A stretch of DNA of 64,000 bases from Ignavibacteriota bacterium (lineage in GTDB: Bacteria > Bacteroidota > Ignavibacteria > Kapaibacteriales > UBA2268). The stretch covers positions 158 to 64,157 of the forward strand of contig JACRLY010000069.1 of the NCBI GenBank assembly GCA_016219595.1. Direction: 5' to 3'. Made by a program: the position numbers and the translations under genes. Each line of letters starts with the position of its first letter. Position 1 is the stretch's first letter. Under the pieces are notes generated by a model that saw nothing but the letters and a program-made list of their open reading frames with translations, was not told the DNA's origin and ran no database searches. Positions 3,157 to 25,173 of this stretch are shown piece by piece.

Positions 3157-3160
3157 GATA

Positions 3161-5259: not shown

Positions 5260-5740
5260 ATCTTCTTTCTTTCAATTCTTGAACATCATATGGAGCGTCA
5301 AGATCTATTACTTCCTGACAGTGTGGGCAATTTAATAACCTGACCGGATCGTCACAATGCGAACATCCGAAAAGTACATTATGAAAAGTCTGACCTTCAG
5401 CATCGCAATAAGGGCATTTAATTTCATCAATATTTTTAACCAGAATATTTTTCAGGCAATGCGGACAAGTGAACACATGATTTAATAATATGTCATCATT
5501 ATTTTCAAATTTGAATGCAAATAAAAACGCCACCAGTAAAACACATAAGAAAGCGGAAATAATATCCACTAAAGCAAAATCATGGATAAAACCATTGGCA
5601 AGCACTACTAAAAATATTAATAGTAAGAATACAATGCCGATTTTTTTAAATTTTTCGTAATTGAAGTTTAAAAACGGTTTATAATTAATATTATCAATTA
5701 TAATGTCTCTGATGCTAATATAATCGTTCTCTGAATTCAA
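5228..5740 (-). CDS. Membrane protein with C-terminal double zinc-ribbon
   Basis: Two hydrophobic helices (IGIVFLLLIFLVVLANGF and IISAFLCVLLVAFLFAF) are followed by four CxxC pairs: CPHC, CPYC, CSHC and CPHC. Confidence 0.55.
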   Translation of the reverse strand: MNSENDYISIRDIIIDNINYKPFLNFNYEKFKKIGIVFLLLIFLVVLANGFIHDFALVDIISAFLCVLLVAFLFAFKFENNDDILLNHVFTCPHCLKNILVKNIDEIKCPYCDAEGQTFHNVLFGCSHCDDPVRLLNCPHCQEVIDLDAPYDVQELKERRYESEEILCHD

Positions 5741-6563
5741 AACCTTTACCCCAATTTTTATTAATATTGCCTATTATTAAAACGGAAAATTTGAAATCAT
5801 TAATCTTGGGTTCTGGTAACAATAAAAACCGTGCCATTTTTTTCCAATATTCAAAAACTGCCATGTCTGCTTTTAATTTAAGATAATTTTCTCTCATCTT
5901 GTCTAACCTCTGTTCCCAATTAGACTGCTCTGTTTCAATTTCAAGAAATTTCAATTTATATTTTTTGCCTTCCTTCAGTACCATCAGAGCGTCGGGACGG
6001 ATATAAGTAAAATCAGGAAATAACAGAAAATAATAATTCGGCAGTTTCAAGGCCTGTACAAAAACCTCGCTGTTCTTTATTTCATTGGCCGTATCAATAC
6101 CCTTAGGTAATGGTTTAAAAACTTTAAAATAATTGTCTTGGTTAAAGGACACGGCTTTAAGAATTTTTTCAGTCGTCTCATTGGCGATATAGATTTTTGT
6201 GTCTTTCTCGATTGCCGAGATATGCCCAATAATAACTAATTCATCTAAAATATCTTTTGTCGCTACTTTGGAGACTCCTGAAAAAGACAAAGAACGCAAT
6301 TGAGCTTGCGTGGTATATTTTAATAGCCGGATGAAATAGTACAACCGGAAAAACTGCTGATAGCTCCTAACGGTTTTATTCTGATTATATATCAATGGTT
6401 TTAATTGCTCTTTAATCAATGATAGGCTAAAAGTGTGTTCAAAGATATTGCCTTGAATAGAATCCATATAACATCCAAAATTATCTGTAAAATAAAAACC
6501 TAAAAATCTGGAAAATGAAGCAATAAAAAATATGCCAATGTTTCCAGATTTCAAAAAAATCAC
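5715..6563 (-). CDS. Replication-relaxation-like protein (wHTH + PD-(D/E)xK-like C-terminus), paralog 1; likely true start at 6467
   Basis: RPDALMVLKEGKKYKLKFLEIETE is a PD...ExE nuclease-like motif. It has the same architecture as the 18707-19513 ORF. The internal Met (MDSIQGN, ATG at 6467) aligns with the paralog N-terminus, and an inverted repeat lies in the putative N-terminal extension. Confidence 0.5.
   Translation of the reverse strand: MIFLKSGNIGIFFIASFSRFLGFYFTDNFGCYMDSIQGNIFEHTFSLSLIKEQLKPLIYNQNKTVRSYQQFFRLYYFIRLLKYTTQAQLRSLSFSGVSKVATKDILDELVIIGHISAIEKDTKIYIANETTEKILKAVSFNQDNYFKVFKPLPKGIDTANEIKNSEVFVQALKLPNYYFLLFPDFTYIRPDALMVLKEGKKYKLKFLEIETEQSNWEQRLDKMRENYLKLKADMAVFEYWKKMARFLLLPEPKINDFKFSVLIIGNINKNWGKGFEFRERLY
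6504..6551. promoter_or_regulatory. 11-bp perfect inverted repeat upstream of paralog 1 (candidate operator / nic-site hairpin)
   Basis: aaatctggaaa (6504-6514) pairs with tttccagattt (6541-6551), with a 26-nt spacer. It lies 37-84 nt upstream of the probable ATG at 6467. Confidence 0.4.
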
Positions 6564-6727
6564 TCAAATAAATCAATGAATTAAAGATTTATTCCAGACC
6601 GGAATATGGTAATATAGTCAAACATGAATAAAACTTATGTCAATGCCTTTATGGCTTGATATAAGTTTTATTTGTGTTATGTCTTCAAATAGGGCGGGTA
6701 AGCGGGTTATCAATCAATTAGCACAAG

Positions 6728-7143
6728 CTCAAAATACAAATCAAAAATCAAATAATTATAAATCAGATATCAAACATAACAACAAATAAAACATCAATAC
6801 AAAGAACAATCTCAACAATCAATAAAAAACATTAATAAATATCAATCATAAAAACACCTATCAAAAAATATCAATAAACTATAAAATATTACCCAAATAA
6901 ATCATTAAAAAATCACCTCATCAAAAAACTAAAAAACATAAACCAAAACCATAAACCAATACAAAAAACATTAAACAAAATCAAAAACATAATCATCAAC
7001 AAAATCCCCTAATAAAAATATCAATCAATCACAAAAACCAAACAAGCAAGAAACATCTTTAAATATCAATCATAAAAACACCTATCAAAAAATATCAATA
7101 AACTATTAAATATTCCCTGAATAAATCAATAAAAAATCCTCCC
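6728..7143. repeat. G-depleted A/C-rich iteron tract with an ~83-bp direct repeat (candidate origin or centromere-like site)
   Basis: There is no G at all on the plus strand from 6805 to 7045 (241 nt), and only 4 G in 6728-7118. The motif ATCAA(T/A) occurs about 25 times. Direct repeat copies at 6837-6919 and 7061-7143 share an identical first 46 nt and are about 90% identical overall. No frame is open on either strand. Confidence 0.7.
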
Positions 7144-7177
7144 TCGGAAGGAAAATCAATCTCCCAAGATTACAAAA

Positions 7178-7194
7178 AATGCTCATTGAGCATT
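7178..7194. promoter_or_regulatory. Perfect 17-bp palindrome (candidate operator)
   Basis: aatgctca-t-tgagcatt. Confidence 0.3.
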
Positions 7195-7479
7195 AATCAA
7201 AACATTGACAGATTAGAAAAAAATCATCAATCCATAATCTAAATCGAAATAAAAATAATAACCTTAAAAAAAGTCAAACTGAAACCATAAATAACGAATA
7301 GCAAAGCAAATGAACAGTCCATAAAAGGAACAAAATATTAACATTCAAACTTAAAATATTAATATCCCCTGGTATCCTTTTAAAACGTTCCCATAAGCCA
7401 TAAAACGGCCATACGGAAACAAAACCTCAATTCAGGTCATCAAGTACCTGAAACAAGAAATCATCTAAGTAGAGGCTTT

Positions 7480-7522
7480 TAAAAAGGAAAAAGCCACCTA
7501 TAAGAATCATCTCATAGGTGGC
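7480..7522 (-). terminator. Intrinsic terminator after the RHH gene
   Basis: On the minus strand, gccacctat-gagatgattctt-ataggtggc (9-bp stem) is followed by tttttcctttt. It sits 49 nt downstream of the stop at 7571. Confidence 0.65.
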
Positions 7523-7570
7523 TCGCTGGCATAGGCAATCAAAACAGGTCTAATCCTGTAATGCCTGCCC

Positions 7571-7789
7571 TTAAAAAGAACTTTTTTCTCCTTCCCAATC
7601 GCCTTGTCTCTCTTTATGGCTTTGGCTCGTAGAAGGAGAGCTATCAGGCTGGCAATTCCGCTTGTGTATCCCATTATTTATATACTCCTCTATAATACTA
7701 CTGACAAACTTAGTCATCGGCTTCTTATGCTCCTTAGCTATTAAATATAGCTTAGGTATCAGTTCTGGTTTTATCTTAGGACTATACAT
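7571..7789 (-). CDS. Ribbon-helix-helix (CopG/ParG/Omega-like) DNA-binding protein
   Basis: SPKIKPELIPKLYLIAKEHKKPMTKFVSSIIEEYI fits a beta-strand/helix/loop/helix RHH pattern. The tail is disordered and S/P/E-rich. Confidence 0.5.
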   Translation of the reverse strand: MYSPKIKPELIPKLYLIAKEHKKPMTKFVSSIIEEYINNGIHKRNCQPDSSPSTSQSHKERQGDWEGEKSSF

Positions 7790-7903
7790 ACAGGTCTCCT
7801 AATGAAAAACCTAATCTTAGGCTAAAAATCAAGTCCGAAATTTTTCTGGAAAAGGCAAGTAGGGAATGAGAAATTTTCAGCAAAATTTTAATAGATAAAC
7901 TTT

Positions 7904-8680
7904 TCATACAATTTCCTCTGTCAGTATTAAATTTAATACCTTCTCCACTTCGCTTAATAATTTCACGCAAGCTATATATGGCGTACAACCAATATTAGCT
8001 GAATAGGTCTCAATATAGCGGTAGCTATTCCCGGCTTGGCTATCCGTTGTCTTGCCGACTATCCGGCACAAGGCTTGGGCTGATAATTCGGCTACAATCT
8101 CCTGTGCCAGGTGCTGTCCTGCTTGTATAGAGCCTAAAACCTTTTCGTGGGCGGCATGAGCCAGTTCGTGAAAGAAGGTTCTTTCTTCCGGGGTTGCTAA
8201 GCAGATTTCCTTTTTCTGAGGCACATAATAGCCATTGTATTCCAAACTGCCGCTAACCGCTTTAACGGAAATTCCCCAGGCTTGAGCTTTCTCCATTAAA
8301 GGTAAACGGAGTAGCTTGATTTCTTCATAAACCAAATCTTCGCCTTCGGTATCTTCCATCCGAAACACCGGACTGGTCATGAATCCGGCTAAGAATACCT
8401 GGTCTTCGCCATTATCATCTGCCCTGGATTTAATCAATGGCACTAATATATACAGGGCATGACTGCCTTTTTTGATATTGCGGTTAACTGTCTGCCATTG
8501 CCTAAAACCTCGTGCATCGGCCGTCCCGGAAAAAATCATCAGCAATTGGTTGAACATCGACCATTTAGAACTGGGAATATTGGGAATGGGAAAACGGGTA
8601 ATGGCTATGGCTTGGGGGATGTCTCCTGTTTTAAACTGCTCCAAAATGGAACTTAAAACTTTAGTAATTTTGTCTGTCAT
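7904..8680 (-). CDS. ardC: ArdC-like antirestriction protein (ssDNA-binding N-domain + zincin metalloprotease domain)
   Basis: The N-terminus (ARGFRQWQTVNRNIKKGSHALYILVP) resembles the ArdC/DUF1738 domain. An HExxH motif is present in FFHELAHAAHEK. Confidence 0.7.
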   Translation of the reverse strand: MTDKITKVLSSILEQFKTGDIPQAIAITRFPIPNIPSSKWSMFNQLLMIFSGTADARGFRQWQTVNRNIKKGSHALYILVPLIKSRADDNGEDQVFLAGFMTSPVFRMEDTEGEDLVYEEIKLLRLPLMEKAQAWGISVKAVSGSLEYNGYYVPQKKEICLATPEERTFFHELAHAAHEKVLGSIQAGQHLAQEIVAELSAQALCRIVGKTTDSQAGNSYRYIETYSANIGCTPYIACVKLLSEVEKVLNLILTEEIV

Positions 8681-8698
8681 ATAAAATCCTCTAAATGA

Positions 8699-9427
8699 TT
8701 AAAATAATGTTATCTGATCACTGATTTCCAATTTGCTCCTCATCAGCACTTTAGGCTTTATTGCCTCTGCTTCCTCGTCTGTTAATACCCTGATAGAGCC
8801 TCCTAAACAGCTGCGGCTGGTCTGATATACCTTAAGATACTCAAAGTTCAAGGTGTCTCCTAAAATGGCGTAACCGTTGAGATTGAAGAATAGCAGGTTT
8901 AAAGCACACATTTTCACGCAGGTGTGATTGATGTCCTGCCCGATAAATAGGGTCTGATTCAAAGACTGATAGGACATTAACTTGCAGGTTTCAATAAGCA
9001 ATACTCCGGCTCCGCAACAGGGATCGGAAATAACTTCCCGCTTGTAAGGTTCCAGCATTTTAGCCATAAATCCGGCAATATGCTTGGGTGTAAAAATCTG
9101 CCCGGTATTCTTGTGGGTTAAATTCCACTTCATGTAGATTTCCCCTAAGAGTTCATCATTGCTCTTCTTCATTTTAGCCAATAATAGCTGGCAGGCATTT
9201 TTGAAGAAGTCAATTTCCCGCTGGCCGGTTTCGGCTGTGTTGCGGTATCTCTTAGCCACAGTTAGATAGAATTCTTCATCCCCTAAGAAGGAATAAAGCA
9301 TTAAATCCAGCCAGTCGCTAAAAATCCGGTGGGCCTCATAACCCATTGCCTGGATTTTCTCCAGTTCTTTAATGATGTCTTTCACATGGTTTTCCTCTGG
9401 ACTGCTAATTATTCTAATGGGAAGCAA
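8699..9427 (-). CDS. N6-adenine DNA methyltransferase-like protein lacking catalytic motif IV (truncated or degenerate)
   Basis: FTPKHIAGFMAKMLEP...ISDPCCGAGVLL provides motif X and motif I (SAM binding). GQDIN...NLLFFNLNGYAILGDTL is a post-I region of HsdM/N6_Mtase type. The ORF ends about 45 aa later with no (N/D)PP(Y/F) motif. Confidence 0.55.
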   Translation of the reverse strand: MLPIRIISSPEENHVKDIIKELEKIQAMGYEAHRIFSDWLDLMLYSFLGDEEFYLTVAKRYRNTAETGQREIDFFKNACQLLLAKMKKSNDELLGEIYMKWNLTHKNTGQIFTPKHIAGFMAKMLEPYKREVISDPCCGAGVLLIETCKLMSYQSLNQTLFIGQDINHTCVKMCALNLLFFNLNGYAILGDTLNFEYLKVYQTSRSCLGGSIRVLTDEEAEAIKPKVLMRSKLEISDQITLF

Positions 9428-10129
9428 ATAAGACCGGTTAATAAATTGTTAAGGTGCTACTTTTACCCTTCAAAAAAGATAAAAAATAATTTGAGGAAAA
9501 TTATACCACAAATCAGAAAAGGAAAAAACACCAAAATTTGTTAAGAAAAATACTCAATTTCCCAAGCAAAAAATGGAGATCATAAATTTGAAAAAATTAA
9601 ATTAATGGTGGCTGTAAAAAAATCTCCAAAACCTTTCCCTGAGACCGGGCATTGTTAATCTGATTGGCATCTGTCCAAATCGGTTGAACTAATCAATAGA
9701 AAATGAAAAATTGATACTAGTATTTATGAGATGTCTTGCTTCTTATCACAAAGTCATCAATAGCAATTTTATCTGTCAAAAACTATAAAATGGTAGGTGT
9801 GTCCGAAAAAACTGCGGTCAAAATCTGGAAAAGGAAACGAAGTCTTAATGAGAATTATGCTTAATTCATATAAAAAGGTAAGGAGCTTTAAAAAAACAGC
9901 TAAGATTAGGGAAAAAAATAAAAATTTTTGATAATATATTAACTTTGAATACTGTGATAATATTGAAATTTTACTTAATTAGAGTAAACTTCATATATAT
10001 TAGAATATATGCAATTTAGGGGAATTTAGCATAAGGATAAATTTTTAATAAGATATAAATTTTTTAATTTGCTTATGTTAATTATTTTAAAATTATAATA
10101 ATTTAAAATTAACAGAATTTAAGAGATTT

Positions 10130-10873
10130 ATGTTATTTTTAAAAAATCTTCATCTAGCTTACGAAAAAAAAAATTTGCTCAACGGGGTAAATATAGAGCT
10201 TAAACGGAATACCGTAACATCTTTATTGGGACCCAACGGTGCAGGTAAGACCTCATTATTTAACATTATTTCAGGATTCATCAAACCAGACCAAGGAAGG
10301 ATTTCTTTCAATAATATAAATTTACTAAAGCTATCTCCTTCCGAAATTGCCAAATGTGGGATAACTAGAACTTTCCAAGATTTGCGTATAATTAAGGAGC
10401 TAACCGTCAAGGAAAACATAGTTCTGTCCTTTAAAAATAATCCAGAAGAAAATATTTTCCGAGCAATTATACCAAAATTTATTAATAGAAATTTCGATAA
10501 AAAGTTTGAAATTAAAGCTAAGAAAATTCTCGAACAAGTCAATTTATCAGATGTAGAAAATAAATTAGCTGGCAAAATTTCCTATGGTCAGCAAAAATTG
10601 CTGACATTGGGTTGTGCCATCGCCAATGAACCCGAATTGATTTTGTTAGATGAACCTGTAGCAGGCATTAATATAATTTTTCAAGAACAAATTAAAAAAA
10701 TAGTTGACAGTTTAAAACAAGCAGGCATGTCAATATTATTAATTGATCACAATGCAGAATTTATTGATTCTGTCAGCGATGAAATTTTGTTCTTGAATGA
10801 GGGAAATATTACTAAATTTCAAAATTATTTAGAATTTAAGGAAATAGTGCTTGCAGATTTTGAATACTATTAA
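10130..10873 (+). CDS. livG: Branched-chain-amino-acid-type ABC transporter ATP-binding protein (LivG-like)
   Basis: Walker A GPNGAGKTS, signature ISYGQQKLL and Walker B LILLDEP. Confidence 0.85.
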   Translation: MLFLKNLHLAYEKKNLLNGVNIELKRNTVTSLLGPNGAGKTSLFNIISGFIKPDQGRISFNNINLLKLSPSEIAKCGITRTFQDLRIIKELTVKENIVLSFKNNPEENIFRAIIPKFINRNFDKKFEIKAKKILEQVNLSDVENKLAGKISYGQQKLLTLGCAIANEPELILLDEPVAGINIIFQEQIKKIVDSLKQAGMSILLIDHNAEFIDSVSDEILFLNEGNITKFQNYLEFKEIVLADFEYY

Positions 10874-10913
10874 TAAGTTAGATTAAATTTTTTAATAATT
10901 TAAAAATATTAAA

Positions 10914-11636
10914 TTGTTAGAAGTCAAAAATATATCAGCATATTATGGCATACAACAAGTGTTGTTTGACATTTCTTTTGAGATTAAGCAAGGCGAGATA
11001 GCCTTAATTATCGGTGGTAATGGAGCAGGGAAAAGTTCCATTTTAAAAAGCATTTTTGGGATCTTGCCATTAAACAGCGGCCAGGTGATATTTAACGGGC
11101 AGGATATAACAAATGTCAAAACCTTCAACTTAATTAAAAAAGGATTTGTCTATTTACCCCAAAAAGACAATTTTTTTGAGGATATGACTGTGCTGGAAAA
11201 TTTGCAGGTTGCTGGAATGAAAATAAAAGGAAAAAAAGAGCTTCAAAAAAGAATGGATTATGTATTTGAAATTTTCCCAGATCTTTATGAAATCAGGAAA
11301 AGAATCCTTTTTAACATGAGTGGTGGAGAAAAACAAATTTTAACATTATGCATGGCTCTTATTCATAAACCAAAGATGATAATGATAGATGAACCGACCG
11401 CTGGATTATCCCCAAAATTAACAAAAACAATCATTGAAAATATTAAAACCATAAACAAAACTGAGAGTGTTACCTTTTTAATTGTTGAGCATAAAATAAA
11501 AGAAATAATTAAAATTACAGAAAGATGTATAAGTATAAAAAATGGTACAATAGTTAAAACATTACATAATAAAAATATTAAAAATAATGATTATATTTAT
11601 ACAAATAATTTCTTAAAAGAAGTTTTATTTATTTAA
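10914..11636 (+). CDS. livF: ABC transporter ATP-binding protein (LivF-like), TTG start
   Basis: Walker A GGNGAGKSS, signature MSGGEKQIL and Walker B MIMIDEP. Confidence 0.85.
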   Translation: MLEVKNISAYYGIQQVLFDISFEIKQGEIALIIGGNGAGKSSILKSIFGILPLNSGQVIFNGQDITNVKTFNLIKKGFVYLPQKDNFFEDMTVLENLQVAGMKIKGKKELQKRMDYVFEIFPDLYEIRKRILFNMSGGEKQILTLCMALIHKPKMIMIDEPTAGLSPKLTKTIIENIKTINKTESVTFLIVEHKIKEIIKITERCISIKNGTIVKTLHNKNIKNNDYIYTNNFLKEVLFI

Positions 11637-11644
11637 TTAAAAAT

Positions 11645-12808
11645 ATGACAAAAAAATCAACTGTAACATTAATTTGTTCTTTATGTATAATAACCGGGAT
11701 TATTTTATCTTGGGTTTATTTTAAAGAAGATCATAAAAGTAAAAATAAAGATGTCATTAATATTGGAGTGATTACTTCTCTTACAGGAACAATTGCACCT
11801 TATGGAAAAAATGTTCTAAATGGACTTCTGCTTGCTAAAGATGAAATTAATAATCACGGAGGAATAAATAATAAAAGAATTAATTTGATTATTGAAGATG
11901 ATAAATCGTCAACTAAAGATGCAGTATCATCCTTTAATAAATTATTTACAATAGACAAAGTACCATTAATAATAGGTCCTGTCGGCAGCACAGAAGCAAT
12001 GGTGTGTGCCCCCATAGCCAACTTAAATAAAATCGTAGAATTTTCTCCTGCTGCTTCAACACCAATGTATACAACTACAGGTGATTATACTTTTAGGAAT
12101 CGGTCAAGTGCAGCATTAGAAGTTGAGGTTATGGCAGATATTGCATATAAAAATCTCAACATTCGTAATATTGCAATTTTATATATAAACAATGATGTTG
12201 GCAATAGTTTCTATCCGTACTTTATTAATAGGTTTACTAAACTTGGTGGGAAAATTTTAATCACAGAAACTTTTGATCAAGGTTCAACTGATATGAGAAA
12301 ACAACTCTCAAAAATTAAAAAGTTTTCTCCCGATGGTTTGTATTTTATTGGACATGTAGAAGAATCTGGTTATATTTTGAAACAAATTAAAGAGTTAAAT
12401 ATTAAAACTCGTCTTATCAGCCATTATTCTCTTGAAGGAAAAGAGTTATTTGATATAGCTGGAAAAGCTGCTGAAGGGATTATTTATACTGCTCCGGGTA
12501 TTGAAAAACAGTCTGTCAACCCTAAGTATTCAGCATTTGCTAAAAAATATCTTGAAAAATATGGCTCAGATTGTGACGTTTTCTCAGCTACTGCTTACGA
12601 TGCACTATATATATTAAAAATTGCTATTGAAAAAGGTGGATATAACTCCGAAGGCATTAAAAATGAATTATATAAGATTAATAATTTTATTGGAGTTACA
12701 GGAATGACAAGTTTTGATAGTAATGGCGATGTAGTAAAACCAGTTGTTGTAAAAGAAATTAAAAATGGTGAATTTGTAGAGATTGTGAATATAAATGATC
12801 TGAAATGA
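11645..12808 (+). CDS. Type-1 periplasmic substrate-binding protein (LivK/LivJ-like) with N-terminal anchor
   Basis: INIGVITSLTGTIAPYGKNVLNGLLLAKDEINNHGGI...IIGPVGS is the typical Leu/Ile/Val-binding protein family pattern. Confidence 0.8.
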   Translation: MTKKSTVTLICSLCIITGIILSWVYFKEDHKSKNKDVINIGVITSLTGTIAPYGKNVLNGLLLAKDEINNHGGINNKRINLIIEDDKSSTKDAVSSFNKLFTIDKVPLIIGPVGSTEAMVCAPIANLNKIVEFSPAASTPMYTTTGDYTFRNRSSAALEVEVMADIAYKNLNIRNIAILYINNDVGNSFYPYFINRFTKLGGKILITETFDQGSTDMRKQLSKIKKFSPDGLYFIGHVEESGYILKQIKELNIKTRLISHYSLEGKELFDIAGKAAEGIIYTAPGIEKQSVNPKYSAFAKKYLEKYGSDCDVFSATAYDALYILKIAIEKGGYNSEGIKNELYKINNFIGVTGMTSFDSNGDVVKPVVVKEIKNGEFVEIVNINDLK

Positions 12809-14160
12809 ATAATAAAAAGATACAATTAATTAATCCTCCTCTTTGTTCTGATTATATTGAATCATCACGAGCTGGGTCCTATCCACCAATAAATTTGATT
12901 TCTTTAGCAACTTACATTAAAACTCATAGTTCAAAATATGAAGTAGAAATATTGGATGGAGAGATACTTTCATTAGAAGAAATTGAATCCAAGATAGATG
13001 CAAGATATGTTGCCATTGGCACTAATATCTTGAGTTATAATAATACAATACATATTGCACAATTTGCAAAAAATCAAAATGCAGTTGTAGTTGTTGGTGG
13101 CCATTATGCTTCTGCAATACCAGAATTAATCTTAATGAACAGATTGTATATTGATTATATAATTATTGGAGATGCTGAAAAAGCCCTCATGGAATTAATA
13201 AATGAATCGCCTCTTGATAGTATTAATAATCTCGTATATCGAAAAAACAATAATATTATTATTAATGAAATAAAAAAAATATCTTTAAAAAAAACACCAT
13301 TATTAGATTTCGAATTTGTCGATTTAAATAAATATTTTCGTAACTTTAATAATAATTACCCAAATAAAGATTACAAACGTCCTTTGGTAATATTTTCTTC
13401 TAAAGGATGTATCTGGAGATCCAAATCCAAAGGATGTATATATTGTGGAATAATGCATGATGGCTGGCGAGCTAAATCTGCATCACAAATTTGGAATGAA
13501 ATTCTTTATTATAAAAATTTATACGATATAGATTTTATTTGGGATGTTTCTGATACGATAACAGCTAGTAAAAAGTGGTTAAAAGAGTTCGCATTGTCAA
13601 AACCAAATGATTTAAACATTGGATTTCATTTATACTCAAGGGCAGATCAAATTAATTCAGAAGTAATGGATTATCTTTCAATGATTAATTGCAAAGAATT
13701 ATTTATTGGAGCTGAGTCTGGGGATGATAAATGTTTAACTCTTTCAAATAAGGGTTATAAAGCAGAACAAAATATCAAGGCAGTAGAGTTTGTGAGCACC
13801 TATAATATAAAAATTGTGCTATCCATAATGTTGGGTTTATACGGAGAATCATTGGATAGTATTAGTAGAACGGAAAATATGATAAAATTGCTAATTAACA
13901 TATCAGATATAGAAGAGGCTTTTGTAAATGTTTTATTACCTATTCCAGGATGTGAAAGTTATACAATGATATTGAAAAATAATATTTTAAAAGAAAAATA
14001 TTATCAGTGTGATTTATTACCATTGGAAGAATTAAGAAAAGACTGGTTAGAAAATTTTACAAATATAACCTATAATGAGTCGCAGTTTTTCAGAGATAGA
14101 TTATTGGAATTGTTTAATATTGGATCAAGTTTCGGAAAACCAAAGGTAAAATGTATCTAA
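12805..14160 (+). CDS. Cobalamin-binding-domain radical SAM protein with atypical CX8CX2C cluster motif
   Basis: The N-terminus has a B12-binding-like Rossmann layout (YVAIGTNILSYN...VVVVGGHYAS). SSKGCIWRSKSKGCIYCG carries Cys codons at 13408, 13435 and 13444. The downstream part is radical-SAM-like (ELFIGAESGDD). The start overlaps the binding-protein stop (ATGA). Confidence 0.7.
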   Translation: MNNKKIQLINPPLCSDYIESSRAGSYPPINLISLATYIKTHSSKYEVEILDGEILSLEEIESKIDARYVAIGTNILSYNNTIHIAQFAKNQNAVVVVGGHYASAIPELILMNRLYIDYIIIGDAEKALMELINESPLDSINNLVYRKNNNIIINEIKKISLKKTPLLDFEFVDLNKYFRNFNNNYPNKDYKRPLVIFSSKGCIWRSKSKGCIYCGIMHDGWRAKSASQIWNEILYYKNLYDIDFIWDVSDTITASKKWLKEFALSKPNDLNIGFHLYSRADQINSEVMDYLSMINCKELFIGAESGDDKCLTLSNKGYKAEQNIKAVEFVSTYNIKIVLSIMLGLYGESLDSISRTENMIKLLINISDIEEAFVNVLLPIPGCESYTMILKNNILKEKYYQCDLLPLEELRKDWLENFTNITYNESQFFRDRLLELFNIGSSFGKPKVKCI

Positions 14161-14178
14161 TTTACGAAAGGGTGTTGC

Positions 14179-16386
14179 ATGAAAAACAACTGGATTGATA
14201 GTTTTAAAAAACAATTTAACGAAGAAATTAAAATTGAAGATAAATATCTATTAAAATGGTTTATTGAATCAATTAAATTTGAAAATCGTGAACAATTCAC
14301 AGAATTGCTAAACATAATGGTCTTACTTGTTTTTGGTATTGATGAACCCCAAAAAATTGAATTTAAAAATTTATATTTAACAGATCCTAATATTATTAAT
14401 AAATTTAAGGTTAATAAAAATTTTGAGTGGCAAAAATGGCTTTATGATGAATTACAATTACGATATGGAGGGATTCATTATCTAAGCAGTACGTTGGGAA
14501 CTTGGCATAGATTTGTATTTGGGGAGAAATGGTATAGTGGAATTGAAGACAAATTAATATCAAATCATGCATTAGATATTGATTATCACAATAGAACATA
14601 TGATTTATTAACTCGTAAAGAAAATGTTTTTCTTGATGAAGAACAAAAAGAAAGAATTAAAATTAATATTGAAAATGGGGAATTGTATGGTGAAAATTTT
14701 AAAGAGATAAGCAATTTCTTAATCTATCATATTAAAAAAAATATTTATCATGGCCTAATGATGCATGAAATATTGGAAGATGATAAAAGAATTGAAGCCC
14801 TATTAACAGAACCAATGTTTGAGAAAATAGTGAATATAGCTTCGAAAATTTTTAAGTACCCAATTAAGAATATAACAGATAGTAGTAAAATTGAATTATT
14901 TAGAAAATTTAATTTTGTTCTTTATCGAACTTTATTACTTGGTTCTATAAATGCTGAAGTAATTTCTTCGCAATATATTAATATTATACCAATCACAAAT
15001 TTTAATAATATTCATTATGCTACATTTGTTGGTATATTTGAAGAAAAATTACCTGAAGATACATTAAATGATGTTGAGTATTTTTTTAATAATTTCCTTA
15101 CTAATATTAACGCCTTTGAATTATCAGTTCAAAATGAATTGTTGCCTAGATCTGTTATTACTATTGAGGACTGTGTTCGTAAATTTTCAAGGATACCTAA
15201 TTTGAATCAAAACGGTTATGCTGGTAATGGAATCACAGAAAAAGATTTAATTAAAGAAGAATTAAGTTTATTTAGCGATAAAGAAAACAAGTACGGAGCC
15301 TTTATTCAAAAATTAATTGAAGATTGGGTAAAAGAGAAAAAAATCAATAAAGAAGAAAAAGAAGCTTTGGAAATAGGTATAAAACTTAAATTTGTTGGAG
15401 CTAATTCTGAAATGATTGATATTTTAAATAATCTCAACTTTAATCTTAGTCATAAAAATGGAAAAGGTGAAGCAATTTTACTGTATAGCGAACCCGGGAA
15501 TGGAAAGGAAACAATTGCGCAATTATGTCATTTTCTTTCCAAAAGGTGGATGACAAAAGATAACATAATAATTGGAGAAATTATCGGAAAAAAATTGGTC
15601 GGTGAAATAAAAGACTCCTTAACTTCAATATTGGAAAATAGCAACATACAAGTTGAACACGATAATGAAAAATTACAAATTAAGTTTGATAACGAACAAA
15701 TATATTATGACAATATCCTTTCATACAATTTTAATAATTTTCATGCTGGCTTGTTATCAAATAATAATTTTAGAAATATTCTATTTGGGAAATATGATGA
15801 CCCTTCAGGCAAATTGACACCTGGTGAATTTTATTTATCCCATCTTACAAAGGGAACTTTATTCTTGGATGAAATTAATACAATAAGTGAACCTAAATTA
15901 TCAAGTTGGTTTTTAAGAACCCTTGAAAAACCATTTTCAATAGTTCCTGAAAATTCTGTTTCAGCAATTGATAATATTGATGTTTTAACAATATTTGCTA
16001 GCAATTTATCTCCATATGAACTTATTAATATTGGTTTTAATCAAGCATTTATATCAAGGTTGAGAACTTATAACATACCACCGTTAAGAAATCGAGTAGA
16101 AGATATTCCTTTACTTATCAATAAGTTCATTTGGTTACATAAGCGTAATTATAAAAAAGCTGAACCTTCAGAATTATATAAATTTGTAGAAATTCAAAAA
16201 ATTGATATTAAAGGATTACATATATTGATTAGATTACCTTGGCGTGAAAATATCAGAGAATTAAAAAGATTTATAGATGACTTAATTGCAGCCCGGATAG
16301 AAAGAAAAATTACTACAAAAGAAATATCTTTTGATGAAATTATAAGATGTATTGTTCGTAATGAAAAAAAATTACTCGGGAAATAA
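14179..16386 (+). CDS. Large protein with C-terminal sigma54-interaction-type AAA+ domain lacking GAFTGA and HTH; ~400-aa N-terminal region of unknown function
   Basis: Walker A LLYSEPGNGKET, Walker B GTLFLDEINTI, FASNLSPYELI, RLRTYNIPPLRNRVEDIPLL and WRENIRELKRF all match bEBP AAA+ motifs. The GAFTGA loop is replaced by FGKYDDPSGKLTPGEF. An insert of about 60 aa follows Walker A. There is no Fis-type HTH tail. Confidence 0.65.
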   Translation: MKNNWIDSFKKQFNEEIKIEDKYLLKWFIESIKFENREQFTELLNIMVLLVFGIDEPQKIEFKNLYLTDPNIINKFKVNKNFEWQKWLYDELQLRYGGIHYLSSTLGTWHRFVFGEKWYSGIEDKLISNHALDIDYHNRTYDLLTRKENVFLDEEQKERIKINIENGELYGENFKEISNFLIYHIKKNIYHGLMMHEILEDDKRIEALLTEPMFEKIVNIASKIFKYPIKNITDSSKIELFRKFNFVLYRTLLLGSINAEVISSQYINIIPITNFNNIHYATFVGIFEEKLPEDTLNDVEYFFNNFLTNINAFELSVQNELLPRSVITIEDCVRKFSRIPNLNQNGYAGNGITEKDLIKEELSLFSDKENKYGAFIQKLIEDWVKEKKINKEEKEALEIGIKLKFVGANSEMIDILNNLNFNLSHKNGKGEAILLYSEPGNGKETIAQLCHFLSKRWMTKDNIIIGEIIGKKLVGEIKDSLTSILENSNIQVEHDNEKLQIKFDNEQIYYDNILSYNFNNFHAGLLSNNNFRNILFGKYDDPSGKLTPGEFYLSHLTKGTLFLDEINTISEPKLSSWFLRTLEKPFSIVPENSVSAIDNIDVLTIFASNLSPYELINIGFNQAFISRLRTYNIPPLRNRVEDIPLLINKFIWLHKRNYKKAEPSELYKFVEIQKIDIKGLHILIRLPWRENIRELKRFIDDLIAARIERKITTKEISFDEIIRCIVRNEKKLLGK

Positions 16387-16391
16387 TTAAA

Positions 16392-17270
16392 TTGATTATG
16401 CAGATTATAATAAATATATTTATAAGTTCTCTTATTTATTTGTTTTTAGCAGATGGTTTTTTTATTATTTATTATCCTTCAAAATTTTTTCCTTTTTCAC
16501 ATGCAATAATAATAACACTCGGTGCGTATTTCACATATTTGTTGTCAAATCAGGTATGCTTACCGTTATGGGTAGCAATATTATCATCAGTTACTCTTGC
16601 AACAATGTTAGGTATATTCATCGAAAAGGTAATTTATAGACCATTAAGGAAACATTGCACAAGCCTTATAAATTTAATGATTACTTCTTTAGGCTTGTAT
16701 ATAGTATTACAAAATGTAATTTCTATTTTTTGGAGTGATGATACAAGATCAATAAGGAAATCTGAAGTATCTGTTGGTAATGAATTTTTTGGAGCATATA
16801 TTACAGACACTCAAGTGGCTATAATTATTTCTAGTATGGTAATATTTATTTCGATACTAATTTTTATGAAGTATACAAAGATAGGTAAATCAATCCATGC
16901 TATTTCATCAAATGCTGAACTCTGCAATATTTTTGGTATTAATTCGGAAAATATTGTTCTATGGGCAACAGGTATAGGTTCTGCATTAGCAGCTACAGCT
17001 GGAATACTGATTTCTTTAGATGTTGACATGACACCAACTATGGGATTTAATCTCCTACTTTACGGAGTAGTTGCTATGATAATTGGTGGAGTTGGGAGCA
17101 TTAGAGGACTTGTTTTTGGAGCTGTTTTACTTGCAACAGCCCAACATCTTACAGCTTACTATATAGATAGCAAATGGATGGATGCCATTACATACTTAAT
17201 TTTAATAATTTTTCTTTTATGGAAACCACTGGGATTTAGCGGTAAAAGATTAAAGAAAGTTGAAATATAA
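16392..17270 (+). CDS. livH: ABC transporter permease (LivH-like)
   Basis: Polytopic membrane protein with the LivH-like motif IGGVGSIRGLVFGAVLL. It starts 5 nt after the AAA+ gene stop. Confidence 0.8.
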   Translation: MIMQIIINIFISSLIYLFLADGFFIIYYPSKFFPFSHAIIITLGAYFTYLLSNQVCLPLWVAILSSVTLATMLGIFIEKVIYRPLRKHCTSLINLMITSLGLYIVLQNVISIFWSDDTRSIRKSEVSVGNEFFGAYITDTQVAIIISSMVIFISILIFMKYTKIGKSIHAISSNAELCNIFGINSENIVLWATGIGSALAATAGILISLDVDMTPTMGFNLLLYGVVAMIIGGVGSIRGLVFGAVLLATAQHLTAYYIDSKWMDAITYLILIIFLLWKPLGFSGKRLKKVEI

Positions 17271-17273
17271 AAA

Positions 17274-18161
17274 ATGGAATATTTATTACATATCTTAATT
17301 TTTATAACAATATACATAATCCTAGCACAAAGCCTTGTGCTGGTGGCAGGTTTCGGTAAGATGATATCTTTGTCTCACGCCGGATTTTATGGTATTGGAG
17401 CCTATACTACAGCTATTCTTTCTATCAATTACGGATTACCTTTTTTAATTACCCTTCCCTTAGCTATGATCATTAGCGGCATCATAGCTTTGATGATATC
17501 CTTAATAGCCTTAAGAACAGTAGAAGATTACTTTATTATCTGTACTCTTGGTATACAAATTATTTTATTTTCTATAATGAATAATTGGATGTCATTAACG
17601 AGGGGTCCGCTGGGAATTCCCGGAATACCTGCATTATCTATTTTTGGTTATGAATTCAATAATAAAATCTCATTTCTAATTTTGAGCATTATCCTGACTT
17701 CGATAGTCTTTTTTATTTTAAGAAATATAACAAAATCAGCCTTTGGCAAAGTGTTAATTGCATTGAGTGAAGATGAAATATATACTCAGAGTATTGGAAA
17801 AAATGTATACTTAACTAAAATCATTACTTTTACTTTGGGTGCAATGATAGCTGCTATCCCCGGTGTATTATATGCTCATTATATTAGCTATATTGATCCT
17901 TCAAGTTTCACCGTCAATGAATCAATATTTATTTTATCAATTGTCATAATTGGCGGTATGAGAAACCTAATAGGTGCCTTAATTGCTGCCTGCTTTTTGG
18001 TTATTTTACCTGAAGTTTTAAGATTTATAGGTTTTTCCGATACTATTGCTGCTAATATCAGGCAGATTATCTATGGAGCTTCATTAGTGATTGTAATGTT
18101 TAATCCCAAAAGTTTAATTGAAAGAGTTTTATTTAAAAGGAAAATGAATAATATATCCTAA
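17274..18161 (+). CDS. livM: ABC transporter permease (LivM-like)
   Basis: Polytopic membrane protein. SLSHAGFYGIGAYTTA and IIGGMRNLIGALIAA are typical of LivM. Confidence 0.8.
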   Translation: MEYLLHILIFITIYIILAQSLVLVAGFGKMISLSHAGFYGIGAYTTAILSINYGLPFLITLPLAMIISGIIALMISLIALRTVEDYFIICTLGIQIILFSIMNNWMSLTRGPLGIPGIPALSIFGYEFNNKISFLILSIILTSIVFFILRNITKSAFGKVLIALSEDEIYTQSIGKNVYLTKIITFTLGAMIAAIPGVLYAHYISYIDPSSFTVNESIFILSIVIIGGMRNLIGALIAACFLVILPEVLRFIGFSDTIAANIRQIIYGASLVIVMFNPKSLIERVLFKRKMNNIS

Positions 18162-18399
18162 AATGATAAATCATGAAGAAAACACGATTTATATAAATTT
18201 TCGAGTTTTCACATTGTAATTAGACAAATTGATTGATATAAAAAGTGGTAATTGAAAAAATGATTTTGATATAAAGCGAGTAAGACTGCTACTAAAGATA
18301 AATTCATTAGTATCTATTTTTTATCTTTCAATCAACCCTAAATATTGTGAGCATCCATATATCTGATATCAAAATCTGGAAATAGTAAAAAATTGCAAA

Positions 18400-18431
18400 T
18401 AAAAACCCCATTTTCTTTTTAAAAAATGGGG
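18400..18431 (-). terminator. Hairpin with T-run on the minus strand
   Basis: The stem ccccatttt/aaaatgggg is followed on the minus strand by tttttatttgc. Confidence 0.4.
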
Positions 18432-18706
18432 CGTTGTAATTGGATGAAAAAATTAAGTATAAATTTCAGCGAGTCAGGATCCTCTGCAACAATTTCCCAA
18501 GAGGATGGGTATAATACTATCATCTTGACTATCAATAGTACCGTAAGATTATTGGATTTTGTCCTGAAATTCTTGCTAGCTTAATTTTTCCCAAAACACA
18601 AAGAACCAGTATAGGAATTATATATTAAACTATTTTCTTGTCAAGAGAGAAATATCATTTAAAGAAAAACAAAAAAACAGATAAAAAACCCAAAAAAAAT
18701 ATCAAT

Positions 18707-19513
18707 CTAATTATCCAACAATCCTACGTGCCTACCTGATGGTGTTAACCATATTGGTTCATTCAAGCGGTAAAAATTGTAAAAACTCAAAAAACAATAA
18801 CGATTTTCAGGTAGATGTCTGACCAAAGAAGATAAATGTTGTAATTGTCTATGAAGTTTATCTATCTCAACTCTCACTTCCTTATTCGTGTATTCTTGGG
18901 GACGACAAAAGCAATTATAGTCTAAATTGGAATAAACAATCAGAACTTTAACCGGAGCGTTCAGATTATTTTTTTTAAAGTTAAAATCTTTGAAGACATT
19001 TTCATATTTGAGAAGTTTTTCACTAACCACTCTATCAACTGTTTTTTTTCTCTCAACTTCAACTAAAAAGATATACTGCTTCATTGTAATTTTGTTAGTC
19101 ATTTTGATTAATAAATCCGGTCTTAAAATAGAGAAGTTCTGGTGGTAATGAATTTCAATAATGAATTGATTATAAAACCTTAAAAAACCCAAGCCAATAT
19201 CACGAATCATGCTTTCGTGCATTATGTTATATGGGCTTTTGGTCGAGCCTTTCCACTTAAACTCTTTAGCCCTACCTACATACTGCGAGCCGAGTCTGGA
19301 AATTGAGAAAAATTGCTCCTGGCAGAGATTACGGACTTTGGTAATGGTATTTATTGGCTGGATAAGCTTTTGTTTTTCCAATTCTTCAAAGGCTTTTCTG
19401 GTATTGACTAAAGCTCCCAAGATGGTTATGGCATTCGGAGAATAGAAATTGTTTTTGGTAGCTATGCCTCCCAAGTCAAGCATTTGATTGAGAATGAGCT
19501 TGAATTTATCCAT
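18707..19513 (-). CDS. Replication-relaxation-like protein, paralog 2
   Basis: ILRPDLLIKMTNKITMKQYIFLVEVERK is the same PD...ExE layout and position as in ORF 5715-6563. Length and N-terminal wHTH-like region are similar. Confidence 0.5.
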   Translation of the reverse strand: MDKFKLILNQMLDLGGIATKNNFYSPNAITILGALVNTRKAFEELEKQKLIQPINTITKVRNLCQEQFFSISRLGSQYVGRAKEFKWKGSTKSPYNIMHESMIRDIGLGFLRFYNQFIIEIHYHQNFSILRPDLLIKMTNKITMKQYIFLVEVERKKTVDRVVSEKLLKYENVFKDFNFKKNNLNAPVKVLIVYSNLDYNCFCRPQEYTNKEVRVEIDKLHRQLQHLSSLVRHLPENRYCFLSFYNFYRLNEPIWLTPSGRHVGLLDN

Positions 19514-20019: not shown

Positions 20020-21090
20020 ATGAAAGATTTTATCAAAAAAATATTTTCAAAATTAACTACCCTATATAGAAATAATAAAGTTGGTTATATTGTAACAATT
20101 ATTATTTTATTTTGTAGTATATCACTTTTTTTTATTTTTATTTCTGAAATTATTAATTTTTTCTTTGCCTTATTTATAAATAAATATAATTCTGTTTATT
20201 TATTTGGAGGTATTGCCTTTCTTGTCTTAATTTTCTATATAATATATTTTATTTGGACTGTTCCAAAAAAACTCTTGGAAAATACTAGTGATGAATTTAA
20301 AACTAATTATAAAAATTATCATTCAGCAATAAAAGATTATAGGACGACTAATGCTCAAATTGTAGCTGGAGTTTTTTTCCTTCTAACTGCTTTTCTTACT
20401 TATACTCAAATCCAAAACGAAAAAATAGCAACTAATGATAGATTAACTTTAGACCAGTATCAAAAGGCAATTGACCAATTAAAAGATACAGTGATGGCTT
20501 CAAAGTTTGGTGGTATTTATTCCCTAGAGAAAATAATGAATGAAAATGAATATTATCATTGGAAGATAATAGAAATTCTATCTAATTATATTAGAGAAAA
20601 AAGATTTATTAAATATAATTTAGCACCAAAAGAACAATTAGATATAGATATTCAAACAATTCTAACTGTACTTGGAAGAAGAAATTCTAATTTCAAAAAT
20701 AATTATAATTTTTTACTTGTTGATTTAAGTTATTCTAATTTATATAGAGCTAATTTTGCAGTTAATGATACAAATGGTAGAAACTTCAAAAATTATAATT
20801 TTAAAAATTCAAATTTACAACATACATATTTAACATCTGCCCATTTTGAAAATGCTTATTGTGCACAAACACATTTTGATACTGCTGATTGCCTTAATGC
20901 CCATTTTGAAAATGCTGATTGTAGGTATGCAGATTTCACAGCTGCAATACATTTAACAGCAGCACAACTTAGTAAAGCAAAAACTCTATATGAAGCAAAA
21001 TTAGATATTGAGATAAAGAAAGAAATAGAAGAAATGATAAAAAAAGATTATGTTAAATACGGTCATTTATTTAAAAAACCAAAAAACTAA
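20020..21090 (+). CDS. Membrane-anchored pentapeptide-repeat protein
   Basis: N-terminal hydrophobic helices are followed by C-terminal A(D/N)LxX-type repeats (LSYSNLYRANFAVND...HFENAYCAQTHFDTADCLNAHFENADCRYADF). Confidence 0.65.
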   Translation: MKDFIKKIFSKLTTLYRNNKVGYIVTIIILFCSISLFFIFISEIINFFFALFINKYNSVYLFGGIAFLVLIFYIIYFIWTVPKKLLENTSDEFKTNYKNYHSAIKDYRTTNAQIVAGVFFLLTAFLTYTQIQNEKIATNDRLTLDQYQKAIDQLKDTVMASKFGGIYSLEKIMNENEYYHWKIIEILSNYIREKRFIKYNLAPKEQLDIDIQTILTVLGRRNSNFKNNYNFLLVDLSYSNLYRANFAVNDTNGRNFKNYNFKNSNLQHTYLTSAHFENAYCAQTHFDTADCLNAHFENADCRYADFTAAIHLTAAQLSKAKTLYEAKLDIEIKKEIEEMIKKDYVKYGHLFKKPKN

Positions 21091-21868: not shown

Positions 21869-22456
21869 ATGAATGATTATAGTACATACAGGGATTGGGA
21901 ATTATTACTATTATTAAATGAACCGAAGCCTACGATGGATATTGTTTTTCATGAATTATTCCTAAGACATTCGGGTAGTTTGATTGGATATTGCAGATAT
22001 AAGGTTAAGAACCAGAGAGATGCTGAAGATATATTTCAGGAAACCTGGTTTGCTTTTCATAAGATTGTGAAAAGCAGACAAACGATATTGAATATTCAAG
22101 CCTATCTAATCGGTACAGCAAGAAAATTAATAAAAGCTTATAATTTAAAAAATATGCAGGAAGAACAGATTTTTGTTCATTTTGATGGATTAGAACTTGA
22201 TAAAATTGTTACACCATTAAGCTTTCCACGAACATTCGATGAAGAAGAATTAGTTGCACTTTTGAAAATCGGTTTGACTGAAATAGAAGAAATATACAGG
22301 GAAACTTTTATTCTCAGAAGTTTTAATAAACTTTCATTTTCAGAAATTGCGGAGATAATGGATGTAACAATTGACAATGTAAAACATAGATATTACAGGG
22401 CAATTAGAATGTTAAAGGATTATTTTAAAGAATATATAGAAAATGTAAAATATTAA
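21869..22456 (+). CDS. ECF-type RNA polymerase sigma-70 family factor
   Basis: Region 2 (DAEDIFQETWFAFHK) and region 4 (SFSEIAEIMDVTIDNVKHRYYRAIRML) are present. Confidence 0.8.
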   Translation: MNDYSTYRDWELLLLLNEPKPTMDIVFHELFLRHSGSLIGYCRYKVKNQRDAEDIFQETWFAFHKIVKSRQTILNIQAYLIGTARKLIKAYNLKNMQEEQIFVHFDGLELDKIVTPLSFPRTFDEEELVALLKIGLTEIEEIYRETFILRSFNKLSFSEIAEIMDVTIDNVKHRYYRAIRMLKDYFKEYIENVKY

Positions 22457-25169: not shown

Positions 25170-25173
25170 AAAT

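Follow-up and report, generated by a model that had tools for sequence, protein, structure and literature searches.

The seven genes at positions 10130-18161 of a 64,000-nucleotide stretch of contig JACRLY010000069.1 from an Ignavibacteriota bacterium (assembly GCA_016219595.1; this whole stretch is hereafter the window) combine a Liv-type ATP-binding cassette (ABC) importer with a cobalamin-binding radical S-adenosylmethionine (rSAM) enzyme and an AAA+ protein. The rSAM gene is accompanied by genes for a substrate-binding protein (SBP), two permeases and two ATPases in about 30 loci (genome and metagenome loci, labeled here L001, L002 and so on), and this recurrence excludes a chance juxtaposition. 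The conserved core of the system is the rSAM enzyme together with the Liv-type importer. The AAA+ protein is derived from a bacterial enhancer-binding protein (bEBP) but no longer has either of the interfaces by which such proteins are known to act on transcription. The interpretation favored here, tentative at a probability of roughly 0.4, is that the operon encodes one import-and-modify module, consisting of an importer, a radical conversion and the AAA+ protein as a sensor-coupled ATPase acting on the enzyme. No description of the cassette, the rSAM family or the AAA+ family was found in the literature.

Operon structure and the importer

An open reading frame (ORF) scan recovered seven plus-strand genes exactly where an initial annotation of this DNA had placed them (Table 1), separated, in operon order, by 40, 8, -4, 18, 5 and 3 nt. 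The Liv gene order with two inserted genes, also proposed in that annotation, was confirmed by Pfam and NCBIfam, and direct reading of the junctions verified the ATGA at 12805, in which the SBP stop codon overlaps the rSAM start, as well as the 18-nt spacer upstream of the AAA+ gene (start 14179) and the 5-nt gap between this gene and the next start. A hairpin located past the last gene is the probable end of the operon, and no convincing internal terminator was found within it. The tight packing, the hairpin after the last gene and the lack of a convincing internal terminator make a single transcription unit the simplest reading.

The HAAT/Liv importer set is complete, with two ABC_tran, two BPD_transp_2 and one Peripla_BP_6 domains, all with Pfam scores well above the cut-off. 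The N-terminus of the SBP reads MTKKSTVTLICSLCIITGIILSW; among solved structures, the branched-chain amino-acid binding protein 3td9 is nearest to the SBP (E=2.7e-54). None of the importer components reached equivalog-level identity as LivJ/H/M/G/F or UrtA-E by the curated NCBIfam cut-offs; the LivJ-type SBP model gave 125.5 bits against a cut-off of 477. Since the scores of the importer parts and of the rSAM enzyme are well below the equivalog cut-offs, these proteins belong to known superfamilies but lie outside every named functional family.

The rSAM enzyme and its family

The rSAM protein consists of an N-terminal B12-binding domain followed by a Radical_SAM core, which is the class B layout by Pfam, and both domains exceed their cut-offs (32.1 bits for PF02310 and 29.5 bits for PF04055). 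The initial annotation had described a cobalamin-binding-like N-domain and cluster cysteines spaced CX8CX2C (codons at 13408, 13435 and 13444), and both features were substantiated, the former by PF02310 and the latter by the family alignment; the canonical CX3CX2C motif is not present in the window enzyme. Residues C202, C211 and C214 are invariant in an alignment of 28 rSAM relatives, in which the long spacing persists down to about 31% identity and remoter B12-rSAMs show CX3CX2C. Among all collected loci, the first two cysteines are spaced CX8 or CX9 in 63 out of 73 family ORFs, and the consensus reads CxWRx4-5GGCx[FY]C. The conservation of the three cysteines despite this spacing implies that a [4Fe-4S] cluster site is still plausible. 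Variant cluster spacings are known in the rSAM superfamily, where they have been catalogued for other, non-B12 megaclusters (PMC9477430).

Homologs of the enzyme are rare. About 45 full-length homologs were found in a collection of 5.8 billion proteins, and the family is present in about 13 of 185,579 species-representative genomes, all of them metagenome-assembled genomes (MAGs) of Bacteroidota, Binatia, Thermodesulfovibrionales, Desulfobacterota-type lineages, Omnitrophota and one Methanosarcinales archaeon. The rSAM-Liv loci span Bacteroidota, Binatia, Thermodesulfovibrionales and others, and all come from MAGs or metagenomes. Searches of viral contigs, phages and plasmids (IMG/VR, INPHARED, PLSDB) yielded no member of the rSAM family; plasmid matches from Rhizobium and Rhodococcus were unrelated and belong to cytokinin-type clusters.

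Comparisons with NCBIfam subfamilies gave scores far below every cut-off: 86 bits for HpnJ (cut-off 577.6), 81.6 for the C-methyltransferase of peptides that are made on the ribosome and modified after translation (RiPPs; 281.85), 75.9 for the methyl-coenzyme M reductase (MCR) glutamine C-methyltransferase (QCMT; 360), 74.7 for PhpK (600), 54.3 for BchE (481) and 53.1 for BzaD (450). The enzyme therefore does not fall within a characterized subfamily, a possibility that the initial annotation had itself raised, and is predicted to belong to an uncharacterized cobalamin-dependent family with B12/SAM chemistry. The second and third ranks of this list, the RiPP C-methyltransferase and QCMT, as well as the nearest solved structure, which is also QCMT (9CCB, E=7e-18 over about 100 residues), nevertheless speak for a reading in which the enzyme modifies a peptide or protein in a RiPP-like or QCMT-like manner, the AAA+ protein unfolds or presents the substrate, and the importer handles the peptide or a related product. 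Some cassettes, moreover, contain a SPASM-type second rSAM and a ThiF-family enzyme, which are common in peptide maturation. Such a function is considered very improbable: both NCBIfam scores are far below their cut-offs, no conserved small ORF was found outside the known genes of 15 loci (the small-ORF matches all lie within permease or ABC genes), and no peptidase, leader-recognition domain or exporter is present. RiPP clusters normally use exporters, and we know of no Liv-type importer that carries peptides.

A bEBP-like AAA+ protein

Pfam assigned residues 552-716 of the AAA+ protein to the C-terminal half of Sigma54_activat and AAA_lid_14, with PF00158 matching in its C-terminal half only (27.1 bits versus a cut-off of 20.2). 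The family profile aligned with Aquifex NtrC1 in two segments split by an insert (E=1.5e-27), and Foldseek with the AlphaFold2 (AF2) model gave a target-normalized TM-score of 0.82 against NtrC1 (3m0e); the AAA+ core of the model superposes on NtrC1, FleQ, PspF and FlrC with target-normalized TM-scores of about 0.8. The mean predicted local distance difference test score (pLDDT) was 65 when the model was built from a 6-sequence alignment and 35.6 from a 2-sequence alignment, with values of 70-90 in the AAA+ core and about 64-84 in parts of the N-terminal domain. The protein still has the Walker B, sensor I, arginine-finger and sensor II motifs as well as the lid. The distance between Walker A and Walker B is 133 residues in the measured family member (L011), compared with 66-67 in canonical bEBPs, which corresponds to an insert of about 55-65 aa that follows the Walker A helix and is disordered in the AF2 model.

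Both elements that connect bEBPs with transcription have been lost. The GAFTGA motif is absent in every member of the AAA+ family, as well as in the L015/L136 and L002 lineages, and the chain stops at the helix that precedes the helix-turn-helix (HTH) in bEBPs, implying that the HTH has been removed. A search with the ATPase module revealed a clear score gap between family-type proteins (197-462 bits), none of which has HTH_8 (PF02954), and canonical bEBPs (at most 129 bits), nearly all of which have it; the same search contributed four more family clusters. No -24/-12 promoter match was found in 9400-10130, and the whole window has 10 matches, fewer than the 20 expected by chance. The loss of GAFTGA and HTH and the lack of such a promoter near the operon make the protein unlike an ordinary sigma54 activator.

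The N-terminal domain (residues 1-403) has no Pfam family at E<=10 and no match among PDB sequences (profile positions 1-356). Its two conserved motifs read WQKWLY..L.L.YGGIHYLS..LG.W.R..FG (residues 84-115) and IIP....G(T/S)FVGIF (residues 269-287). Just 5 proteins were recovered when 1.84 billion cluster representatives were searched exhaustively with a profile, and scans of genomes with N-terminal patterns and of metagenomes with N-domain patterns found nothing. The domain is composed of helical bundles and beta-hairpins in the AF2 model, and a whole-chain fold search returned matches to the AAA+ core only and none to the N-domain. A GAF- or PAS-like domain, prompted by the IIP...GxFVGIF motif, was rejected as unsupported by Pfam (E<=10) and by the PDB profile search. 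The apparent existence of a single AAA+ homolog was a word-index artefact, by which the L004 protein was missed though it is 31-33% identical over its full length. Alignment, Pfam and PDB searches thus agree with the initial description of a protein without GAFTGA and C-terminal HTH, with an insert of about 60 aa and an unmatched N-terminus of about 400 aa; the structure prediction that was suggested with it matched the core to NtrC1-type proteins and gave no fold match for the N-domain.

The closest relatives of this protein are all transcription activators, and a variable N-domain on a conserved ATPase is the normal sensor logic of bEBPs. The protein might therefore still regulate transcription of the operon independently of sigma54, like TyrR or the Rhodobacter-type NtrC, contacting DNA through a partner or through the N-domain, whose helical bundles and beta-hairpins without a fold match leave room for a novel DNA-binding domain. 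Several observations make this improbable. In all family members the chain breaks off exactly where the HTH would begin, PF02954 being missing from them and present in nearly all canonical bEBPs, while to our knowledge the known sigma54-independent relatives of bEBPs retain the HTH. Moreover, no DNA-binding domain, which the initial annotation had named as a finding that would weaken its proposal, was recognizable by Pfam (no DNA-binding family at E<=10), PDB profile or module alignment. The surroundings of the operon contain no sigma54-type promoter, and a mid-operon gene with gaps of 18 and 5 nt on its two sides is unusual for a regulator.

A variable slot beside the rSAM gene

The seven-gene order of the window is identical in L001, whose AAA+ and rSAM proteins are 56% and 76% identical, respectively, to those of the window. 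In L004/L005, L012 and L011, too, members of the AAA+ family lie next to the rSAM gene and/or Liv permeases. Altogether, an AAA+ gene of the same family stands beside the rSAM gene in at least five loci, and a related GAFTGA-less and HTH-less AAA+ protein does so in three further architectures; in the window, L001, L125 and L002 the two genes adjoin or overlap each other. The position beside the rSAM gene is, however, a variable slot in which the AAA+ protein is one of several alternatives and represents a minority architecture. Most commonly the slot is occupied by a protein with two transmembrane segments (2-TM protein), either about 310-380 aa or about 520 aa long. Other contents are a 6-TM protein, a SPASM-type or plain second rSAM (as in the L014/L018 cassettes), and, in L015/L136, a ThiF-family enzyme with a different bEBP-like AAA+ protein of 734-768 aa. 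Further slot proteins of 412 aa (L014), 475 aa (L008), 510 aa (L010) and 894 aa (L018) have no assignment; tested as stand-alone homologs of the AAA+ N-domain with filters off, the slot proteins of L014, L008, L010 and others gave no signal. The 894-aa protein of L018 (10782-13466) has no database match but carries C-terminal HD-like motifs (HFMHSFN, LHDIAYP and FHHICD). Unrelated small ORFs without database matches occur inside the syntenic cassettes of L001 (13089-13469, 126 aa) and L004 (9918-10319, 133 aa).

Two architectures, L125 and L002/L003, are without the Liv importer and keep the AAA+-rSAM pair. L125 (3970-11356) is a tight same-strand array of genes for an SsuD-like monooxygenase (E=1e-126 with PDB 3rao), an SsuA-type SBP, an ABC ATPase, a 6-TM permease, the AAA+ protein and the rSAM enzyme, and its AAA+ protein combines the ATPase module of the family (E=4e-61) with a different N-domain. 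L002/L003 encode an MFS transporter, a more divergent AAA+ protein, a PALP-family enzyme and the rSAM enzyme. The N-domain thus differs among AAA+ lineages while the rSAM enzyme is conserved, and three lineages of GAFTGA-less, HTH-less bEBP-like AAA+ proteins occur together with this enzyme beside Liv ABC, Ssu-like ABC and MFS transporters. This pairing across three kinds of transporters indicates that the AAA+ protein tracks the rSAM enzyme rather than the importer. A hint of organosulphur compounds comes from the SsuD/SsuA-like genes of L125, the cysteine-synthase-like PALP of L002 (a weak similarity) and the ThiF-family gene of L015/L136; as the PALP and ThiF assignments are generic, a sulphur-metabolism theme is treated here as no more than a lead.

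The view of the initial annotation that the two inserted genes are not accidental is upheld by the occurrence of the rSAM gene with Liv genes in about 30 independent loci and by the recurrence of the AAA+ gene beside it. Its proposal of an importer coupled to a radical step with an ATPase is supported for the link between rSAM enzyme and importer; the ATPase is an optional accessory, its slot being taken by the 2-TM protein in most cassettes.

Genomic neighborhoods and a possible role in conflict

The flanks were annotated for about 10 loci, 6 of which (the window, L001, L002, L008, L012 and L175) have conflict-system or mobile-element neighbors. L001 is bordered on one side by genes for DndE, a DEAD/PLD helicase, an SMC-like protein and an Mrr nuclease and on the other side by a type I restriction-modification (R-M) system, all on the same strand. 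AbiC and GmrSD follow the cassette in L002, SIR2-HerA is located directly upstream on the same strand in L012, and a gene for a helicase-PIN-nSTAND protein precedes the cassette in L008. Beside the SIR2-HerA of L012, at 369-2579 on the minus strand, a 338-aa Sigma54_activat-only AAA+ protein, a further short ATPase of bEBP-like type among defense genes, is encoded next to a 368-aa protein without matches. In L175 (1-7686), six TIR genes and TPR-S proteins on the same strand end 11 nt before the SBP gene and are themselves preceded by DNA-hypermodification genes (thymidylate-synthase-like, HMUDK and Nmad2). The upstream TIR genes are kept in L123 (3120-6416), though its rSAM and SBP are only 50% and 55% identical to those of L175. 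A 669-aa ORF of L020 (9077-11086) has a SIR2-like N-terminus of about 200 residues in frame with the rSAM enzyme (PADLOC SIR2, E=9e-8; Pfam SIR2_2, 25.1 bits), which may be a genuine fusion or may reflect an ORF called too long in this GC-rich MAG. L006/L104, on the other hand, lie in a housekeeping context, and L174 has only a Ser/Thr kinase nearby. The association of the cassette with defense genes across these annotated loci is suggestive.

These neighborhoods, which the initial annotation could not see, open another reading, that of the cassette as a new system of anti-phage defense or conflict. Its rSAM-importer core would make, import or process a small-molecule signal, toxin or antiviral compound, and the slot proteins (AAA+ with variable N-domains, 2-TM, TIR arrays and the SIR2 fusion) would be interchangeable sensors or effectors. 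In addition to the conflict or mobile neighbors at L001, L002, L012, L008, L175, L123 and L020 and on the left flank of the window, the patchy and rare distribution of the family, the GC and GC3 (GC at third codon positions) of the cassette, which are below those of both flanks, and the hypervariable accessory slot are in line with this idea. Nevertheless, no component specifically matches a known defense system in PADLOC-DB v2, where only generic ABC-ATPase and AAA+ similarity and a weak match to PDC-M51A (E=5e-4, B12-binding domain) were obtained, and no family member is found on viral contigs, phages or plasmids. The neighbors are known for the annotated loci, with enrichment not quantified, and the housekeeping context of L006/L104 does not fit; since mobile cargo in general also accumulates in such islands, adjacency by itself is weak support. 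We know of no precedent for an SBP-dependent Liv-type importer in a defense system. The conflict reading is the main rival of the favored one, though considered unlikely. Unlikely as well is its more specific form, in which the rSAM-importer cassette would be the core of an unrecognized conflict or defense class, with a cobalamin-dependent radical enzyme acting on an imported or importer-delivered small molecule and with interchangeable modules for sensing infection or carrying out the response (AAA+ ATPases, 2-TM proteins, TIR arrays and fused or adjacent SIR2); it would also be the first case of a bEBP ATPase core re-used outside transcription. The recurrent TIR, SIR2, Abi, R-M and Dnd neighbors raise the possibility of an import-dependent, metabolite-based immunity, which, if true, would be a new anti-phage principle; about one chance in four is given to such a categorically new import-dependent principle.

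A proposed import-and-modify module

According to the favored interpretation, the HAAT/Liv importer would bring a small compound into the cytoplasm, probably an amino-acid-like or organic nitrogen or sulphur compound. In favor of this model, the SBP is nearest to amino-acid-binding proteins of the LIVBP type, and the alternative partners of the rSAM enzyme are small-molecule transporters and enzymes. The rSAM enzyme would transform the imported compound, most likely by C-methylation or by a radical rearrangement or cleavage. The AAA+ protein would no longer act on transcription; as an ATPase that senses a ligand or a partner, it may switch or remodel, at the post-translational level, the rSAM enzyme or the complex of this enzyme with its substrate. 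The module as a whole is accessory and horizontally mobile.

The gene content, the tight packing, the lost motifs, the conserved link between rSAM enzyme and importer and the presence of the AAA+ protein beside the rSAM enzyme with three transporter types are observed; what is transported and in which direction, which reaction follows and what the AAA+ protein does are inferred. Several points weigh against this interpretation. The AAA+ protein is not essential to the rSAM reaction, being absent in most cassettes, where a 2-TM protein occupies the slot. Because Ser replaces the first Walker A Gly, the ATPase competence of this protein is not certain. N-domains vary over a conserved ATPase and rSAM enzyme, which fits a sensor better than a dedicated rSAM chaperone; of the chaperone, activase or remodeller functions put forward in the initial annotation, the first two found no support and the proposal is still conjecture. 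QCMT, the nearest solved rSAM structure, acts on a protein and not on a small molecule. Finally, defense genes frequently surround the cassette in the same orientation, in places about 11 nt away, which is unexpected for plain nutrient uptake.

The linkage of the rSAM enzyme with an SBP is of practical value, as the SBP provides a direct experimental route to the substrate, the usual bottleneck for orphan rSAM enzymes. The AAA+ protein, conserved despite the loss of both interfaces, is a candidate case of a transcription ATPase re-used as a regulator of a protein or enzyme.

Composition and flanks of the operon

The GC content of the cassette is 28.2%, compared with 32.0% for the window, and is lowest, at 25.8%, in the AAA+ gene; the AT-richness is thus moderate and not, as had been claimed initially, extreme. 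The GC3 is 17-27% in the cassette, 25-31% in the right-hand chromosomal genes and 33-52% in the left mobile-type genes. The statement that the block lies inside mobile-element-like DNA applies to the left flank (Table 1), where no integrase was seen in the mobile-type run at 2100-9427, but not to the right, where an ordinary Bacteroidota-type chromosome with a type IX secretion system sorting tail, TonB-dependent receptors and multihaem cytochromes begins at about 24 kb. A direct repeat brackets the operon (9818-9854 and 18369-18405; 14 nt exact, TCAAAATCTGGAAA, and 37 nt at 70%), and its downstream copy adjoins the terminator hairpin, a position suggestive of an insertion scar. This explanation was rejected, as an exact match of 14 nt is about chance level in AT-rich DNA.

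Directly downstream of the operon, a 268-aa ORF on the minus strand (18707-19513) has no match in Pfam, PADLOC or PHROGs. It is followed by a membrane-anchored pentapeptide-repeat protein (20020-21090) and an extracytoplasmic function (ECF)-type sigma factor (21869-22456), the latter with a subsequent 383-aa protein without matches that could be an anti-sigma factor (region to 23619). The region 24270-31652 encodes a cluster of large multihaem cytochromes that have MtrC/OmcA-like domains and are either fused to cytochrome b561 membrane domains or adjacent to them; this cluster suggests extracellular or periplasmic electron transfer.

Table 1. Positions in the window of the operon genes, of segments of the rSAM and AAA+ proteins and of flanking features
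Feature	Position	Strand	Evidence or remark
LivG-like ABC transporter ATPase	10130-10873	+	PF00005 E=8.9e-30; best NCBIfam LivG, 174.6 bits (equivalog cut-off 362)
LivF/UrtE-like ABC transporter ATPase, TTG start	10914-11636	+	PF00005 E=5.8e-31; UrtE 187.5 and LivF 166.4 bits, both below cut-off
LIVBP/Peripla_BP_6-type SBP, N-terminal hydrophobic anchor	11645-12808	+	PF13458 E=6.3e-52
Cobalamin-binding rSAM enzyme	12805-14160	+	PF02310 42.5 bits; PF04055 46.5 bits
Expanded [4Fe-4S] cluster loop, CIWRSKSKGCIYC	13408-13446	+	C202, C211, C214; CX8CX2C
AAA+ protein, 735 aa	14179-16386	+	bEBP-type ATPase module and N-terminal domain
AAA+ N-terminal domain, residues 1-403	14179-15387	+	Conserved motifs at residues 84-115 and 269-287
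bEBP-type ATPase module, residues 404-735	15388-16386	+	Family profile, Foldseek, module alignment
Walker A, SEPGNGKE (first Gly to Ser)	15487-15510	+	Module alignment
Insert, about residues 457-516	15547-15726	+	Module alignment
L1 loop, FGKYDDPSGKLTPGEF where GAFTGA is expected	15784-15831	+	Module alignment
Walker B, GTLFLDEI	15853-15876	+	Module alignment
Arginine-finger region, PPLRNRVEDIPLL	16048-16116	+	Module alignment
Sensor II, RENIRELK	16243-16266	+	Module alignment
Pre-HTH helix and chain end, ISFDEIIRCIVRNEKKLLGK	16324-16383	+	Aligned with helix before HTH in ordinary bEBPs
LivH/UrtB-like ABC permease, TTG start	16392-17270	+	PF02653 E=6.7e-34
LivM-like ABC permease	17274-18161	+	PF02653 E=1.7e-39; LivM 154.8 bits, below cut-off
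Bidirectional terminator-like hairpin	18405-18432		12-bp stem, T-runs on both strands, about 245 nt past last gene
Primase-like gene	2100-2879	-	Left flank, mobile-element-type
HerA/FtsK-like ATPase	3161-4408	-	Left flank, mobile-element-type
Zinc-ribbon protein	5228-5740	-	Left flank, mobile-element-type run
ArdC-like anti-restriction protein	7904-8680	-	Left flank, mobile-element-type
Orphan N6 DNA methyltransferase	8699-9427	-	Left flank, mobile-element-type

Comparison with known systems

The operon shares its five transporter parts and their Pfam families with the HAAT importers LivJ/K-HMGF and UrtABCDE, from which it differs in a gene order broken by two cytoplasmic proteins, in the conserved linkage of SBP and rSAM and in scores below the equivalog cut-offs. 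The rSAM enzyme has the B12 Rossmann domain and rSAM core, and a detectable similarity, in common with class B enzymes such as HpnJ, RiPP C-methyltransferases, QCMT, PhpK, TokK and OxsB. However, it is 4- to 8-fold below each family cut-off, and its family (63 of the 73 ORFs) has CX8-9CX2C instead of CX3CX2C. The AAA+ protein resembles the bEBPs NtrC1, PspF, FleQ and ZraR in its core fold and in the layout of a variable N-domain joined to an ATPase, but it lacks GAFTGA and HTH_8, contains an insert of about 60 aa behind the Walker A helix, a Walker A Ser and an orphan N-domain, and is encoded within an importer and enzyme operon.

Prokaryotic viperins are also rSAM enzymes located in defense islands; they are not B12-dependent and not linked to importers. 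They have no sequence relationship with the enzyme described here (no PADLOC match), but both are rSAM enzymes among defense genes and could make a modified metabolite. In the carbon-phosphorus (C-P) lyase (phn) operon, an ABC importer is co-transcribed with proteins that process the compound taken up, namely the radical-SAM-type PhnJ and ATPase-like accessory proteins. The likeness is one of logic only: there is no enzyme homology, the phn importer belongs to a different family, and the system is not cobalamin-dependent. All parts of the cassette described here fall within known superfamilies, and its combination of an importer with a radical enzyme appears to have a functional analog in the C-P lyase operon.

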